Below, one piece after another: positions 1,326 to 9,633 of a stretch of 13,378 nt of DNA. The notes below the pieces were generated by a model. That model saw nothing but the letters and a program-made list of their open reading frames with translations, was not told where the DNA came from and searched no databases. The position numbers were made by a program, and so were the translations under genes. The first letter of the stretch is position 1, and each line of letters starts with the position of its first letter. Source of the DNA: a virus; UHGV virus genome UHGV-1734134. The stretch is one strand, 5' to 3'.

Positions 1326-2762
1326 TCAGAATCCTCCTTTCTTCTTGGACTGCGGTTCCTCTCGTTCACGTCGGCGCATTTCAGCAGACTGTTGGTCTGT
1401 GTCATAAATAGCGCCATTTGCCTGAATGCAATACACCGTGCCGGTATTGCCATGACGATTGAGACGAAGGATTAGTTCGGTTTCACCAGGTGGAACACTG
1501 TCATCAAAAGCGCCTTCACGATGGATCCCAACCCAATAATCGCAATCCTGTTCAATCTGCCCTGTATCTCGTGAGTCACTTGGTAATGGGCGTTTATTGG
1601 TTCGGCTTTCCAGTGCGCGGTTAAGCTGTGTCAGAAGCACAACAACGCAATCAAGCTCTTTGGCAAGGTTCTTCAGTCCTTTGGTGATCATGCCGTAAGC
1701 AAGGTCGTTGCGATCGGCCTTCTCAGCGGTCATTAGTGTCAGGTAATCGACCAGAATCATGCCAACATATCCTTTTTCTCGCTTGATTCGACGGCTTTCG
1801 CTGACGATTTGAGCCAGAGATAATCCCGGCGTGTCGTCGATGTAAAGCATGTCGATTTCACTCAAGCGATTGGCTGTTTCGATCGCCCTGTTGAAGTCAC
1901 CATCGTAATCACCCTGATAGCCGTCATCAGCGTCATTTGTCGCCGGAAGGTAAAAAATATTCGGGTTAACACCAGACTTCTGCCCTACCAGTTTTTCCAG
2001 TATCTGGTCACCGGGCATTTCAAGGCTGAACATCAGAGCGGGCTTTTTCTCATGCACTGCGCAGTTGATTGCCATCTGGCTGTATAGCGTCGTTTTCCCC
2101 ATCTTAGGGCGAGCGCCAATGACAAACAGAGAGCCTTTCACCAGACCTTTCGGTGACAGCATCCTGTCCAGCGATGGGATCCCTGTGCTCATTCCTCGTT
2201 GTTCGCCTGACGGGTCAAATCGCTTCTCAAGGTCGCTAACCCAGTCTTCCATGACCTCACCAAATGAGCGAAGGCCGCGACGCGATCCGGTTTTTGCATG
2301 GTCTGTCAGTTGCGTGAAAATCGCCTGAATAGCTTCGTACTTCTGCGTTGCAGTCATTCCGTTGCGGGAATAGAGCAATTCCGTCGCTTCAGTCATGCGG
2401 TTGATGGCGTAGCGTTCCATTGCGGTTTCACGAACCTGCATTGCATAGGCAACGATGTTTGCTGCGCTTGGCGTGTTCTTTGCGATCTCAGCGATATAAG
2501 CAAAACCGCCAACAGACGCCGTTAACGATTTACGCTCCAGTTCATCGAAAAGCGTCAGGCCATCTACTGGCTTTTGCTCCCGGTGCATTCTGGTTATTTC
2601 TTCGAAAAGGATTTTGTGTGGCCGGCTGTAAAATGAGTCAGGCTTCAGCATCGCCAGAACTTTCTGGACGCGCTCACTGCTGTCATCATCCAGAAGCAAT
2701 CCACCAATCACCGCCTGCTCTGCCTCGATGCTATGGTGCGGCGCATAAAAATTATCGGTCAT
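1326..2762 (-). CDS. Replicative DNA helicase, DnaB family (P22 gene 12-like)
   Basis: About 478 aa from the ATG at 2762 (GAGGGTG upstream); the track's GTG start at 2777 adds 5 aa. N-terminal DnaB-type block (IEAEQAVIGGLLLD...), Walker A GARPKMGKT, Walker B-like MILVDYLTLM. Overlaps the O-like gene end by 11 nt. Confidence 0.9.
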   Translation of the reverse strand: MTDNFYAPHHSIEAEQAVIGGLLLDDDSSERVQKVLAMLKPDSFYSRPHKILFEEITRMHREQKPVDGLTLFDELERKSLTASVGGFAYIAEIAKNTPSAANIVAYAMQVRETAMERYAINRMTEATELLYSRNGMTATQKYEAIQAIFTQLTDHAKTGSRRGLRSFGEVMEDWVSDLEKRFDPSGEQRGMSTGIPSLDRMLSPKGLVKGSLFVIGARPKMGKTTLYSQMAINCAVHEKKPALMFSLEMPGDQILEKLVGQKSGVNPNIFYLPATNDADDGYQGDYDGDFNRAIETANRLSEIDMLYIDDTPGLSLAQIVSESRRIKREKGYVGMILVDYLTLMTAEKADRNDLAYGMITKGLKNLAKELDCVVVLLTQLNRALESRTNKRPLPSDSRDTGQIEQDCDYWVGIHREGAFDDSVPPGETELILRLNRHGNTGTVYCIQANGAIYDTDQQSAEMRRREREEPQSKKKGGF

Positions 2763-3651
2763 CGTGTTCACCCTCACGAACTTTCAGGTAGGTATTATCG
2801 TTAAGCAGGAAATCAAATCCCTTTTTGTGCCAGACGGTTCCGCGTTGATGGTTTGGGCGCTCTTCGAACATCCATCGGCAATTTTCGCCAACGTAGCTCA
2901 AATAATTTCTCCAGTCCTGCATCGTGAACCCATGCCCGTCAAGCTGGCGGGTTATCACTCCGGCTTTGCGCCAGAACGTTCGGATCTGGTTTTTACGCTT
3001 GTCATTCAGTGCGCGGATTCTTGGAGCTTCAGGAAGGATTTCGTGGTAAGCATCGACAACATCCTGACAGCTGACGGAAGGTTTTTTCTTGTCAGACTTT
3101 TTGTCTGCTGCGGTACTCTCTAATACGTCAGTATTAGAGATAATATTATTATATTCTTTATCTGTGGTAATTTGCTGGTAATCTGCTGGTACAGTATTGC
3201 TTGCAGGCATTGGTATTGCTGGCTTTGAGGTGGTAATTTGCTGGTAATCTGCTGGTACAAAATTTGACTGATAATCGTCATATTTCTCTACCGAGAAAAC
3301 TGAGAATTTACCGTGTGAAACCCAGTCAATCATGCCGAGTTTTTTGAACTTTCTAAGCAGGTACTGAACGCGATCTGGTTTGAGTCCTGTTTCAAACGCC
3401 AGAGAGTTTCTACCGCCAAGTAGCTTCCCTCTGCCTACCAGAATTTCTCCTGCGTCAGTCATTACATACTCAGGCGTATGCTTTGCTTTGAGGATTAAGT
3501 GAACCCACAGATGCGCAGCTTCTGCGTCCTTGTAAAACGGCACATCCATAATTTTACGGTGCAGCAAGGCATACCCCTTACCGCTGCTTTGATGCGGTTG
3601 TTGTAGCCTTCTGGCCTCTCTGGCTTCGGCTAGATTAGATATGTTACTCAT
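2752..3651 (-). CDS. Replication initiator protein, lambda O-like (replisome organiser)
   Basis: 299-aa ORF with AAGGAG upstream of the ATG. Sits immediately upstream of the helicase, as O/gene 18 does in lambdoid phages. Its central linker is encoded by the iteron repeats (tandem peptide [10 protein letters not shown]). Confidence 0.8.
3121..3259. repeat. Putative phage origin of replication: AT-rich block plus iterons inside the O-like gene
   Basis: Perfect 30-bp direct repeat GTGGTAATTTGCTGGTAATCTGCTGGTACA at 3164-3193 and 3230-3259, each built from TGGTAAT(N)TGC sub-repeats. Adjacent AT-rich stretch 3121-3160 (taatacgtcagtattagagataatattattatattc). Same architecture as ori-lambda inside O. 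Confidence 0.65.
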
Positions 3652-3790
3652 GACCTTTCTCCTTCTGCATCAGCTTCACTTTTTCCAACTCAGCCCGGAA
3701 TCGACCAGGCTGCTTGAAGCTGGACAGGAAGCGATCACGTAGTATGTGTTTGTGAATTTTGTCCTGGTAAGGACTGAGTTGTTTTGTCAT
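3644..3790 (-). CDS. Small ORF (48 aa) between cII and the O-like gene
   Basis: ATG at 3790 with GGGAG 6 nt upstream. Translation [48 protein letters not shown]. Stop overlaps the O-like start. Below the ORF-track size cut-off. Confidence 0.4.
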
Positions 3791-3824
3791 AATTACTCCC
3801 GTGGATTGATCCAGTCTTTCTACA

Positions 3825-4103
3825 TTAGGCCTCGAAGAATTCGCCGTTCTTCGGGGCTTTTTCTTTTGTCAGCATTCTGGCTACTTTCTTAGCCAGTTCC
3901 GCCAACTCCTCGTCTTCAACACCCCATTCAAGAACAGCCAGAAGCATTCCCATTTTTGGGATGAAGCTGTCTTTCCATCGCGAAATTTGCGATTCATTAA
4001 TCCCTAACGCGTCGGCAACATTTCGCTGGCCACGTACAGCAATTCGATTCAGGATGTTGCTTGTAATTGCATTCGCTTTCTTGCGAGTACTTGTAAGTTG
4101 CAT
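3825..4103 (-). CDS. cII: CII transcriptional activator
   Basis: From the internal ATG at 4103 the protein is 92 aa. It aligns closely with lambda CII as I recall it (e.g. [20 protein letters not shown]). The track's upstream start at 4163 would run into the nutR/tR1 region. Confidence 0.9.
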
Positions 4104-7945: not shown

Positions 7946-8653
7946 ATGGATTTGAATAAATTCGATGAGCCATTCAGCCCTGAAGATATCGAATGGCGAA
8001 TACAGCAAAGCGGTAAAACACGCGATGGCAAAGTGTGGGCTATGGTGCTGGCTTATGTCACGAACCGGGCAATCATGAAACGCCTGGACGATGTTTGCGG
8101 CAAAGCAGGATGGCGCAATGAATACCGCGATATTCCCAACAACGGAGGCGTTGAATGCGGCATATCAATCAGGATTGATTCCGAATGGGTAACCAAATGG
8201 GATGCTGCTGAAAACACGCAGGTAGAAGCCGTCAAAGGTGGTCGTTCAGGTGCAATGAAGCGTGCTGCCGTTCAGTGGGGAATCGGTCGGTATCTGTATA
8301 ACCTTGAGGAAGGTTTCGCACAAACATCTCTCGATAAAAAGCAGGGATGGCACAGGGCAAAACTCAAGGATGGAACAGGATTTTACTGGCTCCCTCCATC
8401 GCTGCCGGGATGGGCAATCCCAGCATCAGATAACAAACCATCACCAGAAAATACCAACCAGAAATCTCCATCGGTTGACTGCGAGCAAATCCTGAAAGAC
8501 TTCAGCGATTATGCGTCAACAGAAACTGACAAGAAAAAACTCATCGAGCGTTATCAGCGTGACTGGCAATTAATGGCTGGCAACGAGGAGGCGCAGGCTA
8601 AATGCGTTCAGGTAATGAACATCAGAGTTAACGAACTAAAACAGGCGGCATAA
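7946..8653 (+). CDS. Single-strand annealing protein, Rad52/Rad22 (Sak-like) family
   Basis: 235 aa with GAGGTG upstream. The core ...GGVECGISIRID...GGRSGAMKRAAVQWGIGRYLYNL is characteristic of the Rad52/22 annealase fold. Sits in the position lambda uses for bet. Confidence 0.75.
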   Translation: MDLNKFDEPFSPEDIEWRIQQSGKTRDGKVWAMVLAYVTNRAIMKRLDDVCGKAGWRNEYRDIPNNGGVECGISIRIDSEWVTKWDAAENTQVEAVKGGRSGAMKRAAVQWGIGRYLYNLEEGFAQTSLDKKQGWHRAKLKDGTGFYWLPPSLPGWAIPASDNKPSPENTNQKSPSVDCEQILKDFSDYASTETDKKKLIERYQRDWQLMAGNEEAQAKCVQVMNIRVNELKQAA

Positions 8654-9121
8654 ATGTCTCACTTGGACGGAATTATTAAAAGATTCGAGTCCAGCTACAA
8701 AGTTAATGAAACAACAGGTTGCTGGGAGTCTACCTATTCAAAAAACAAAGGAGGATACACAAAATTTGTAGCCTTTGGCGTAACAATGCTTTCTCATCGG
8801 GTTGCTTTTGAGCTTTATCACTCCCCCATTCCATCTGGGAAGATGGTTTGCCACAAATGCGATAACCCATGCTGCGTTAATCCTGAACATCTCTTTTTAG
8901 GTAGCGCGCAAGAAAACATGGACGACAAGATAGCAAAAGGAAGGCATCGTGGAGCCAAAAAAGGTCATGCTCATCATGGTGCAAAATTAACAGAGTGGCA
9001 GGTTATAGAAATTAGGAAAAGACTCTCTGAAAAAGAGAGTCAGTACAAGATAGCAAAAGACATGGGTGTATCTCAATCAATTATAAGCAACATAAAAATT
9101 GGCAAGAGGTGGAGCAAATGA
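8654..9121 (+). CDS. HNH homing-type endonuclease
   Basis: 155 aa. HNH motif [15 protein letters not shown]..., with a C-terminal basic helix-rich region ([13 protein letters not shown]) typical of the DNA-binding tail of HNH homing endonucleases. Lower GC. Wedged between the annealase and SSB with abutting start and stop codons. Confidence 0.8.
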
Positions 9122-9633
9122 GTTCTCGCGGGATAAATAAGGTGATCATTATTGGTCGCCTTGGGCATGATCCAGAAATCAGATATTCACCATCAGGAAC
9201 GGCATTTGCAAACCTTACAGTTGCTACGTCAGAACAATGGCGTGATAAGCAAACTGGAGAGCAAAAGGAGCATACGGAGTGGCACCGTGTGGTAATGAGC
9301 GGGAAACTGGCAGAAATTGCCAGCGAGTATCTGCGGAAAGGCTCAGAGGTTTATCTTGAAGGCAAATTGCGGACAAGAAAATGGCAGGATCAAAGTGGAC
9401 AGGATCGGTTCACTACCGAAGTCATCGTAGGCGTTGGTGGAACCATGCAAATGCTTGGTGGCAAGCAAGGAGGAAATGAACAGTCTTCTCCTCAGCGAAA
9501 TAACGGTCAGCAACAAAGACAGCAACCTCAGCAGCAGGGAAATCACAGCGAACCACCTATGGAGTTTGACGACGATATACCATTTGCGCCAGTAACTCTC
9601 CCCTTCCCTCGTCACGCTATTCACGCAATTTAA
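9118..9633 (+). CDS. ssb: Single-stranded DNA-binding protein (SSB) with an extended C-terminus
   Basis: ATG at 9118 overlaps the HNH stop (ATGA). The OB-fold N-terminus ([20 protein letters not shown]...TEWHRVV...) and Gly/Gln-rich linker are typical. The canonical DDDIPF tail is followed by 15 more residues ([15 protein letters not shown]). Confidence 0.9.

Follow-up and report, generated by a model that had tools for sequence, protein, structure and literature searches.

The question raised by this locus is whether a pair of perfect repeats inside a phage replication gene serves as DNA, as coding sequence, or as both. Within the window, that is, the whole stretch of 13,378 nucleotides of viral DNA analysed here, the 30-bp sequence GTGGTAATTTGCTGGTAATCTGCTGGTACA was found in two mismatch-free direct copies (3164–3193 and 3230–3259) with a start-to-start distance of 66 bp, which confirms the two perfect direct repeats that the initial annotation had reported within the initiator gene. 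A simple calculation gives about 1e-10 as the number of perfect 30-mer pairs that 13.4 kb of random sequence would contain by chance. Tandem Repeats Finder detected three tandem arrays across the window; two are the 30-mer copies, each with an internal period of 11 bp, and the third is a 19-bp array at 9612–9630. No second repeat array was found in 2700–3700, which comprises the initiator gene and its immediate flanks. The shorter sequence TGGTAATNTGC has four exact matches window-wide, all of them within the two 30-bp repeats. On the minus strand, the repeats are part of an open reading frame and encode the same 10-residue peptide twice between the N- and C-terminal domains of its product, so that the proposed tandem peptide repeat in the inter-domain linker could be read directly from the 299-residue translation.

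The initiator gene (2752–3651, minus strand, 299 amino acids) is called 'O' in HK022, HK620 and VT2-Sakai, gene 18 in phage L and gene 43 in Sf6. Its product is 99–100% identical to O of mEp235, Stx2 phage 86, VT2-Sakai and HK022, and across all 900 bases the DNA shares 99.0–99.6% identity with mEp235, Stx2 phage 86 and VT2-Sakai and 98.6% with HK620. For the N-terminal domain (residues 1–122, encoded at 3286–3651, minus strand), AlphaFold predicted a winged-helix DNA-binding fold when residues 1–131 were modelled with an alignment, and we presume that this domain is the iteron reader. The iterons adjoin its coding region. PDB sequence searches with the whole protein and with an N-terminal-domain profile returned chance-level matches only. 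What remains of the linker, together with the C-terminal domain (residues about 179–299), is encoded at 2752–3116 (minus strand), and the C-terminal domain presumably acts as the helicase-recruiting module. Downstream follows a DnaB-like replicative helicase gene (1326–2762, minus strand), known as 'P' in HK022 and VT2-Sakai and as gene 12 in L. The corresponding open reading frame (1326–2777) matched Pfam DnaB_C (2.3e-60) and DnaB (2.2e-30), and the start at 2762 was adopted from homologues of 478 amino acids. The helicase gene overlaps the end of the initiator gene by 11 nt, an arrangement shared by homologous loci.

Both repeats resolved into blocks of three 11-bp units. Read on the coding strand, block 1 (3225–3259, containing the 30-mer 3230–3259) consists of TACCAGCAGAT (3257–3247), TACCAGCAAAT (3246–3236) and TACCACCTCAA (3235–3225), and block 2 (3159–3193, containing the 30-mer 3164–3193) of TACCAGCAGAT (3191–3181), TACCAGCAAAT (3180–3170) and TACCACAGATA (3169–3159). 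The third unit of each block begins with TACCAC. The sub-iteron motif TGGTAAT(N)TGC given by the initial annotation thus captured the first two units per block but missed the third. A fast-evolving spacer of 12 codons (3194–3229) separates the blocks and holds a degenerate fourth unit, AGCCAGCAATA (3224–3214), with an in-phase fourth CCA at offset 63. No inverted repeat was reported inside the blocks, and TACCAGCAGAT is not self-complementary. As candidate DnaA boxes, TTACCAGCA and TTACCACA were rejected by eye, since they do not fit TTATNCACA and are one base short.

A repeat that is translated may simply be a duplicated stretch of linker that is favoured by selection, or tolerated, as peptide, while the DNA itself has no function. 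The region is indeed translated, the 66-bp unit amounts to 22 whole codons, it occurs in 1 to 4 copies, a variation also known from many low-complexity linkers, and a single-sequence AlphaFold model of the full protein (pLDDT 44.7) left residues 121–192 without secondary structure, at low confidence. Comparison of relatives speaks against this explanation. The 11-bp period is not a multiple of three and places the unit in all three frames, where it encodes three different peptides (V-P-A-D, Y-Q-Q and I-T-T); since the period is out of codon phase, the constraint acts on the DNA and not on the peptide. When iteron number was compared across relatives, as the initial annotation had suggested, two blocks of three 11-bp units were found at the same codons in more than 110 related loci; 76 of 80 IMG/VR loci have the two-block layout. 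In an alignment of 35 non-redundant relatives from many Enterobacterales genera (43–100% amino acid identity), 33 carry CCA at offsets 30/41/52 and 96/107/118 nt past a KYD[DE][YF]Q motif, the two exceptions having a 12-bp spacing; that is, the layout is fixed even at 43% amino acid identity. In natural variants, the 66-bp unit is present once, three times or four times, which indicates a tolerant linker. The one-block variant (L084) may mean that two blocks are not strictly required, or the L084 element may be defective.

The same picture emerged from nucleotide diversity. Among 38 unique same-class sequences, a grouping that makes the measured conservation partly circular, diversity amounted to 0.056 for block 1, 0.016 for block 2 and 0.018 for the four complete cores, versus 0.238 in the spacer, where 30 of 33 columns vary, and 0.246 at third codon positions of the N-terminal domain; the circularity is mitigated by binning on N-terminal-domain identity and by only 10 of 66 columns being fixed. 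Iteron DNA, its own third positions included, is therefore 4–15 times less diverse than the spacer or the other third codon positions of the gene. Among pairs with 70–90% DNA identity in the N-terminal domain, iteron blocks were 91–96% and spacers 63–65% identical. The spacer peptide evolves freely between the conserved blocks. Together with the concerted change of all six units described below, these results make a mere peptide duplication extremely improbable. The 10-residue peptide would then occur twice as a by-product of bases that double as linker-coding sequence.

The 8-bp core of the unit is uniform within each genome, and identity between block 1 and block 2 is usually 0.85–1.0. Across the family we distinguished about seven core classes (TGCCAACA, GTCCAGCC, GTCCAACG, TACCAGCA, ATCCAAAG, TACCAACA and TACCAAGC), and all six units switch together between classes. 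Sequence comparison supports the conclusion that the class of the core goes with the winged-helix N-terminal domain and not with the C-terminal domain. Mantel r was −0.59 for the former (0 of 5,000 permutations) versus −0.13 for the latter, an association that could partly reflect physical linkage in mosaic recombination instead of recognition. Individual pairs illustrate the coupling: Sf6 shares 100% of the C-terminal domain with the window but 50% of the N-terminal domain, and differs at 4 of 8 core positions, whereas a Pantoea prophage has the same core with 44% identity in the C-terminal and 75% in the N-terminal domain. IMG/VR loci with an N-terminal domain at least 82% identical to that of the window have TACCAGCA as prevailing core, although their C-terminal identity ranges from 46 to 100%; three of them contain one variant unit. 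A natural chimera extends this pattern. In gp58 of Erwinia phage vB_EhrS_59, a window-type N-terminal domain is joined to a lambda-O-type C-terminal domain (70% identical), and the gene keeps two perfect 31-bp blocks 66 bp apart as well as a palindrome, while the next gene encodes a lambda-P-like loader. The set of iterons, palindrome and N-terminal domain thus appears, as these comparisons support, to be a portable module.

Next to the iterons, the initial annotation had placed a 40-bp AT-rich block. AT-rich DNA is present at this site (GC 0.20 at 3120–3159 and 0.225 at 3140–3179 in 40-nt windows, with flanks at 0.4–0.6), but the block proper covers about 23 bp (3141–3163) and is followed by a perfect palindrome, which starts 4 bp beyond the feature span of 3121–3259 that had been assigned and within which the repeats do lie. 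The block, which encodes DKEYNNII, is the presumed DNA-unwinding element, and an AT-rich NNINN-type stretch occurs at the same place in all 35 aligned relatives. As it also encodes this conserved NNINN-like peptide, part of its constraint may be at the protein level.

The palindrome, TCTCTAATAC-gtca-GTATTAGAGA (3117–3140), has 10-bp arms and a 4-nt loop, encodes ISNTDVLES and folds as single-stranded DNA at −7.5 kcal/mol (z −5.4) on either strand. In the 35 relatives, its covariation was 0.588, versus 0.151 after shuffling (0 of 500) and 0.06–0.18 when the frame was slid, and the ten pairs are kept via compensatory changes (94 double-sided, none one-sided). Two further outermost pairs were considered and discarded, as only 0–1 of 35 sequences pair there; the stem is 10 bp. 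The compensatory substitutions force correlated amino acid changes in the initiator (N..L, L..R, I..I and S..E). A conserved hairpin might also act in RNA, either as an antisense, plus-strand intrinsic terminator or as a hairpin of the initiator mRNA. A consensus scan did flag plus strand 3117–3140 followed by TAATATTATT as terminator-like, and the phage L record holds automatic antisense 'terminator' predictions in the region. However, the stem contains only three G-C pairs, the T run is interrupted and no promoter-like site was found in 2700–3800. The absence of one-sided, G-U-type changes fits a strict Watson-Crick DNA palindrome, readable from either strand, better than an RNA helix, and a palindrome occupies the equivalent position in ori-lambda. 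A scan of the whole window against Rfam gave no match, so that no described RNA family accounts for the palindrome or the region. We therefore regard an RNA-level signal as unlikely.

The reading of these repeats as origin iterons is already known, and public phage records annotate them as such. In VT2-Sakai (99% identical), the misc_binding features 'ori iteron 1' and 'ori iteron 2' coincide exactly with 3230–3259 (block 1) and 3164–3193 (block 2), the HK620 rep_origin maps onto the same repeat bases, and in Sf6 (rep_origin) and phage L the corresponding region is annotated as putative origin. VT2-Sakai, HK620, HK022 and mEp235 carry the same element as the window, with no substantive difference (initiator gene DNA 98.6–99.6% identical; amino acid identity to mEp235 and HK022 98–100%), and in the window, as in the HK022-type module, a DnaB-like helicase gene lies downstream and orf48/DUF2740 upstream. 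Sf6 and L share the layout but have a different core, GTCCAACG. Every public annotation of this origin carries the word 'putative'; in the four records that we examined, neither the palindrome nor the AT-rich block is marked, and the term iteron is applied to the full 30-mer instead of the 11-bp unit. Our analysis adds the palindrome with its 10-bp stem, the natural chimera with a lambda-type C-terminal domain and the unit copy number of 1 to 4.

Helically phased direct-repeat arrays also occur in plasmid control and centromere sites. The units might accordingly be regulatory sites for the initiator or another protein, serving autoregulation, a transcription roadblock, copy-number handcuffing or a partition-like function, with the origin elsewhere in the module. 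In the searchable literature we found no EMSA, footprint, origin-cloning or replication-mapping experiment that locates the origin in this initiator family, and a search for the VT2-Sakai iterons gave no match. For phage L, six 11-bp repeats (TGTCCAACGGA) in gene 18 were termed the likely origin, and phage crosses with substitution of the whole region placed the origin inside the replication region (PMC8022706). That result, the joint conservation of iterons, AT-rich block and palindrome in ori-lambda order, the joint transfer of module and N-terminal domain into lambda-type surroundings, and the lack of another candidate array near the gene (the only other one in the window is that at 9612–9630) argue against a purely regulatory role, which we consider very unlikely. 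As a further genetic argument, we considered Salmonella relatives (66% identical) as 'P22-type', with the lambda(18,12)P22 hybrid (PMC3349717) as proof. The argument does not transfer and was dropped, because gp18 of P22 proper shares only 25% identity with its phage L counterpart and carries four repeats, each about 20 bp long (PMC8022706).

The likeness to ori-lambda, which the initial annotation had invoked, holds for the layout but not for the type of iteron. In both systems, the initiator gene contains the origin, placed between the segments for an N-terminal DNA-binding and a C-terminal recruiting domain, and the same tools gave the same order along transcription: iterons (3259 to 3159 in the window, 735–821 in lambda, numbered as in our locus L008), AT-rich block (3163–3141 versus 820–859) and palindrome with a 4-nt loop (3140–3117 versus 863–890). 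Both initiators comprise 299 amino acids, both pair an N-terminal domain and iterons as one specificity module with a C-terminal domain that matches the next gene, and the linker of lambda O tolerates in-frame changes (PMC6022878), as does that of the window family, to judge by its natural copy variants. Lambda iterons, however, are dyad-symmetric, 18–20 bp long and each bound by an O dimer (PMC6022878), whereas the window has 2 x 3 direct 11-bp units without dyad symmetry. The protein matches phrog_345 ('replication initiation O-like', E 5.6e-88), but neither BLASTP (E 4.7) nor hhalign (probability 0.14%) detected similarity between its sequence and that of lambda O. The Pfam family PF04492 Phage_rep_O is matched by lambda O (5.7e-36, 123 bits); the window protein gave no match to this family at E limits of 0.01 (whole) and 1 (two halves), and none in NCBIfam. 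Lambda P is a loader of host DnaB, whereas the partner in the window is a DnaB-like helicase; among window-type modules, the Erwinia phage chimera alone combines a lambda-type C-terminal domain with a P-like loader.

SPP1 oriL/G38P shares direct repeats (AB boxes) and an AT-rich unwinding element within the initiator's own gene, an initiator without AAA+ domain and a phage-encoded DnaB-type helicase (PMC5737612). The N-terminal domain scored E 0.09–0.12 (about 13 bits, under the 23.3-bit cut-off) against PF09681 Phage_rep_org_N, with 4 of 24 members of the family giving weak matches, and families labelled 'DnaD-like helicase loader' in PHROG matched at 1e-10 to 5e-21. Unlike SPP1, which has a G39P-like loader gene, the window has none between initiator and helicase, where the 11-nt overlap leaves no room for such an open reading frame. 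The SPP1 origin is proven biochemically, whereas that of the window is putative and derived from sequence comparison. Plasmid iterons (pPS10, R6K, RK2, pSK41-type RepA_N) are 17–22 bp in length, are located outside the rep gene and have an additional role in handcuffing control. The units of the window, in contrast, are 11 bp long and lie inside coding sequence, and similarity to plasmid Rep proteins is limited to the generic winged-helix fold.

Taken together, we conclude with a probability of roughly 0.85 that the repeats belong to the replication origin of an HK022/HK620/Sf6/L/VT2-Sakai-type lambdoid prophage module, located within the part of the initiator gene that encodes the linker. DNA-level conservation, the out-of-phase period and the coupling to the N-terminal domain support the earlier proposal that this DNA is constrained as an initiator-binding array. 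In the mechanism that we infer, the winged-helix N-terminal domain would bind the direct 11-bp units through the core TACCAGCA, three head-to-tail per block at about one per helical turn, with the blocks 66 bp apart. The resulting nucleoprotein complex would destabilise the adjoining AT-rich block (3141–3163), and the palindrome (3117–3140) would border or stabilise the unwound stretch, probably by forming a hairpin or cruciform. The C-terminal domain could then recruit the phage's own DnaB-like helicase, encoded immediately downstream.

A bolder version of this origin model holds that the palindrome is an obligatory third origin element, acting as DNA hairpin or cruciform, and that the seven or more iteron classes, every one matched to a winged-helix variant of its own, are mutually orthogonal initiator-origin pairs. 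We offer it tentatively and at somewhat below even odds. As an obligatory element, the palindrome might hold the bubble open or mark a loading site for helicase or primase.

The main finding is correct but ordinary, in that a known annotation was re-derived from raw sequence. Of 5,426 complete E. coli genomes, 229 contain at least 80% of the 3100–3290 region. The module is part of Shiga-toxin-converting phages (VT2-Sakai, Stx1 and Stx2 phages, Stx2 phage 86) and also of Sf6 and HK620, and phage replication raises stx gene dosage. Studies of Stx phage replication have dealt with the lambda-type O/ori (PMC7466680) and not with the type found in the window. The origin has been annotated as 'putative' since 1999–2001, and precise, cheap experiments can now start from the comparative picture, in which the unit is 11 bp long, its class switches in step with the N-terminal domain, the origin module is portable and the palindrome covaries. 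If the initiator-origin pairs are indeed orthogonal, a recognition code, with one 11-bp unit per monomer, could be readable from the covariation of N-terminal-domain residues and core bases.

The 30-mer GTGGTAATTTGCTGGTAATCTGCTGGTACA was found twice without mismatch by repeat search, at 3164-3193 (block 2) and 3230-3259 (block 1), with a start-to-start distance of 66 bp. Both copies lie in the linker region of the initiator gene (2752-3651, minus strand), whose 299-aa product carries the encoded 10-aa peptide twice, 22 residues apart. The two perfect direct repeats and the tandem peptide reported in the initial annotation are thus confirmed as written, while two details could be refined. The sub-iteron motif proposed there, TGGTAATNTGC, has four exact matches in the window, all within the 30-bp repeats. 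Tandem Repeats Finder detected an 11-bp period within each copy (the whole window has only one further tandem array), and each block consists of three 11-bp units, reading TACCAGCAGAT, TACCAGCAAAT and TACCAC... on the coding strand. The AT-rich block is also real, with GC dropping to 0.20-0.225 across 3120-3179, and resolves into about 23 bp of AT-rich DNA (3141-3163) and then a perfect palindrome (3117-3140). Besides the full units, a degenerate fourth one (AGCCAGCAATA, coding strand) lies at 3214-3224, after block 1 and in helical phase with it; it recurs as AGCCAGTG and AGCCAGGC in two relatives (L010 and L019), and an in-phase fourth CCA is found in most IMG/VR loci of the window's core class.

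An 11-bp period is not divisible by 3, which places each of a block's three units in a different reading frame (giving VPAD, YQQ and ITT); a repeat at the peptide level cannot produce this pattern. Among 38 unique sequences of the window's core class, diversity was 0.056 in iteron block 1, 0.016 in block 2 and 0.018 in the four full cores, versus 0.238 in the inter-block spacer and 0.246 at third codon positions of the N-terminal domain. Pairs were also binned by N-terminal-domain DNA identity, so that groups were not defined by the iterons themselves. In the 70-90% bins, iteron identity was 91-96% versus 63-65% for the spacer; below 70% it falls to about 62-67%, the point of class switch.

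Relatives were drawn from annotated phages (L003-L007, L045), one genome per species (L009-L041) and IMG/VR (L046-L125). Counted from the K of the KYD[DE][YF]Q motif, CCA triplets lie at offsets of 30/41/52 and 96/107/118 nt in 33 of 35 non-redundant relatives, down to 43% amino acid identity and across Escherichia, Salmonella, Klebsiella, Enterobacter, Yersinia, Erwinia, Pantoea, Edwardsiella and other genera. The same two blocks occur in 76 of the 80 IMG/VR loci; in the others the number of blocks is three or one, or the gene is truncated. The two exceptions, from Silvania hatchlandensis (L030) and a Leclercia MAG (L031), have 12-bp spacing (about 1920-2020; CCA offsets 53/65/77 and 121/133/145), which places the repeat in codon phase and makes it encode xYQx repeats. 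Initiator genes of the window's enterobacterial type also occur in assemblies labelled Bacteroidota (L015, Chryseobacterium sp. 18061, 799-kb contig, where the gene is Sf6-like) and Actinomycetota (L038, Catenulispora yoronensis, 501-bp contig), likely through mislabelling or contamination. Many 'partial' initiators of about 95-182 aa in a public protein collection (P0121-P0184) terminate at the repeat region or shortly past it; the iteron repeats seem often to interrupt assemblies or gene calls.

The 8-bp core of the units has one form within a genome and varies between genomes (TGCCAACA, GTCCAGCC, GTCCAACG, TACCAGCA in the window, ATCCAAAG, TACCAACA and TACCAAGC). The Mantel correlation of core distance with domain identity was r -0.59 for the N-terminal domain (0 of 5000 permutations) but only r -0.13 for the C-terminal domain. 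Between the window and Sf6, the C-terminal domain is 100% identical, but the N-terminal domains are 50% identical and the cores differ at 4 of 8 positions; with a Pantoea prophage, the C-terminal domain is 44% and the N-terminal domain 75% identical, and the core is the same. In the IMG/VR loci, TACCAGCA prevails as core wherever the N-terminal domain shares 82% or more identity with that of the window (three loci with one variant unit), at C-terminal identities of 46-100%, and N-terminal domains at 63-65% have GTCCAGCC, one of them with GTCCAGCA. Core class follows the N-terminal domain; physical linkage contributes to this association, which is nonetheless the one that an origin-specificity module would predict. 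The clearest case is gp58 of Erwinia phage vB_EhrS_59 (NC_048198.1, chimeric initiator and loader region at 317-1968). Its N-terminal domain is of the window type (47% identical) and is accompanied by two perfect 31-bp blocks, 66 bp apart (713-743 and 779-809), and the palindrome. Its C-terminal domain is of lambda O type (70% identical to lambda O residues 178-299), and a lambda-P-like loader gene follows. This natural chimera shows that N-terminal domain and origin move as one module and that the C-terminal domain matches the downstream partner.

Comparing iteron number among related prophages, as the initial annotation had proposed, revealed a range of one to four blocks. Initiators of 321 and 343 aa contain three and four copies of the 22-aa unit, and tandem 66-bp units (iteron plus spacer) are seen in the DNA. 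IMG/VR added a further three-block and a one-block locus, giving one block in L084, three in L043, L044 and L046, and four in L042. These initiators are otherwise 98-100% identical. The range of block numbers shows that the linker tolerates changes in repeat number. The one-block locus could represent either a minimal origin or a defective one.

Directly beyond the AT-rich DNA, the palindrome reads TCTCTAATAC-gtca-GTATTAGAGA. Either strand, taken as single-stranded DNA, folds at about -7.5 kcal/mol (z -5.4). A simple scan also gave a weak terminator-like call for the antisense strand, and a role as antisense-strand terminator is retained as a rival reading. In the alignment of 35 relatives, ten stem pairs are kept almost everywhere while the sequence varies (arm pairs TCTCTAATAC/GTATTAGAGA, CTCTCTTAC/GTAAGAGAG, CTTACTACC/GGTAGTAAG and CTCAATATC/GATATTGAG). 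For a 12-pair structure, 94 cells had both-sided changes and none a one-sided (G-U-type) change, with a covariation of 0.588 versus 0.151 after shuffling (0 of 500 reached 0.588) and 0.06-0.18 with the partner slid. The two outermost pairs were unsupported, leaving a 10-bp stem. At the protein level, substitutions are correlated in pairs (N..L, L..R, I..I, S..E), which, together with the lack of one-sided changes, points to selection on a Watson-Crick DNA palindrome. None of four inspected public records (VT2-Sakai, HK620, Sf6 and phage L) annotates it.

The iterons themselves are already known. Across the whole initiator gene, identity is 99.0-99.6% to O of mEp235, Stx2 phage 86 and VT2-Sakai and 98.6% to that of HK620; the protein is 98.3% identical to HK022 O. 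The VT2-Sakai record (AP000422) places misc_binding features 'ori iteron 1' and 'ori iteron 2' at exactly 3230-3259 and 3164-3193, the rep_origin of HK620 covers the same span, and the Sf6 and phage L records annotate a 'repeat region reminiscent of the phage lambda origin' and a 'putative origin of replication'. A published account of phage L describes six 11-bp repeats in its gene 18 as the likely origin, and distinguishes from its product the gp18 of true P22, which is only 25% identical and has four repeats of about 20 bp (PMC8022706). Our literature search found no binding or origin-function experiment for the window-type family; experimentally, these origins are still 'putative'.

The comparison with ori-lambda holds for element order, position in the linker of a 299-aa initiator and modular logic. 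In lambda, analysed with identical tools, four 20-bp iterons spaced by 20-24 bp (PMC6022878) are followed by an AT-rich block (GC 0.225) and a palindrome, GTCAGAGAATTC-tggc-GAATCCTCTGAC. However, the lambda iterons are dyad-symmetric, whereas those of the window are direct 11-bp units. The proteins belong to different families (BLASTP E 4.7, hhalign probability 0.14%); the window initiator matched PHROG 345 ('replication initiation O-like', E 5.6e-88) but neither Pfam Phage_rep_O nor any NCBIfam model. Its partner gene encodes a DnaB-like helicase instead of P. An experimentally proven analogue is SPP1 oriL, which lies within gene 38, comprises AB boxes plus an unwinding element and likewise works with a phage DnaB-type helicase (PMC5737612); the window initiator did not fall into the SPP1 Pfam family.

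The window represents the early region of an Sf6/HK633/mEp235-like, mosaic lambdoid prophage. Its minus-strand genes are, in order, cII (Pfam Phage_CII), the DUF2740/orf48 gene, the initiator and the helicase gene, whose start overlaps the initiator end; on the plus strand, a cI-type repressor precedes N, Erf, an HNH endonuclease and SSB. An oop-like antisense unit lies at 3783-3859, where Rfam reported nothing. The conserved 33-bp pO/oop 5' motif of lambdoid phages matches 3783-3815 (minus strand) with one mismatch (0 expected by chance), and a strong intrinsic terminator (plus strand, 3827-3859; 14-bp stem, then TTTCTTTTGT) overlaps the cII 3' end. The HNH ORF (8654-9121, plus strand; PHROG 59 and related, E 1.6e-32), between the genes for an Erf-like annealing protein (7946-8653) and SSB (9109-9633), resembles a mobile element inserted into the recombination module.

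Taken as sequence comparison, strong evidence supports a putative origin within the initiator gene, matching public annotation and published description. To this we add the 11-bp unit as the entity that evolves, the coupling of class switching to the winged-helix N-terminal domain, a portable origin module, a covarying palindrome and a range of copy numbers. These additions leave the kind of element unchanged and make the origin directly testable.
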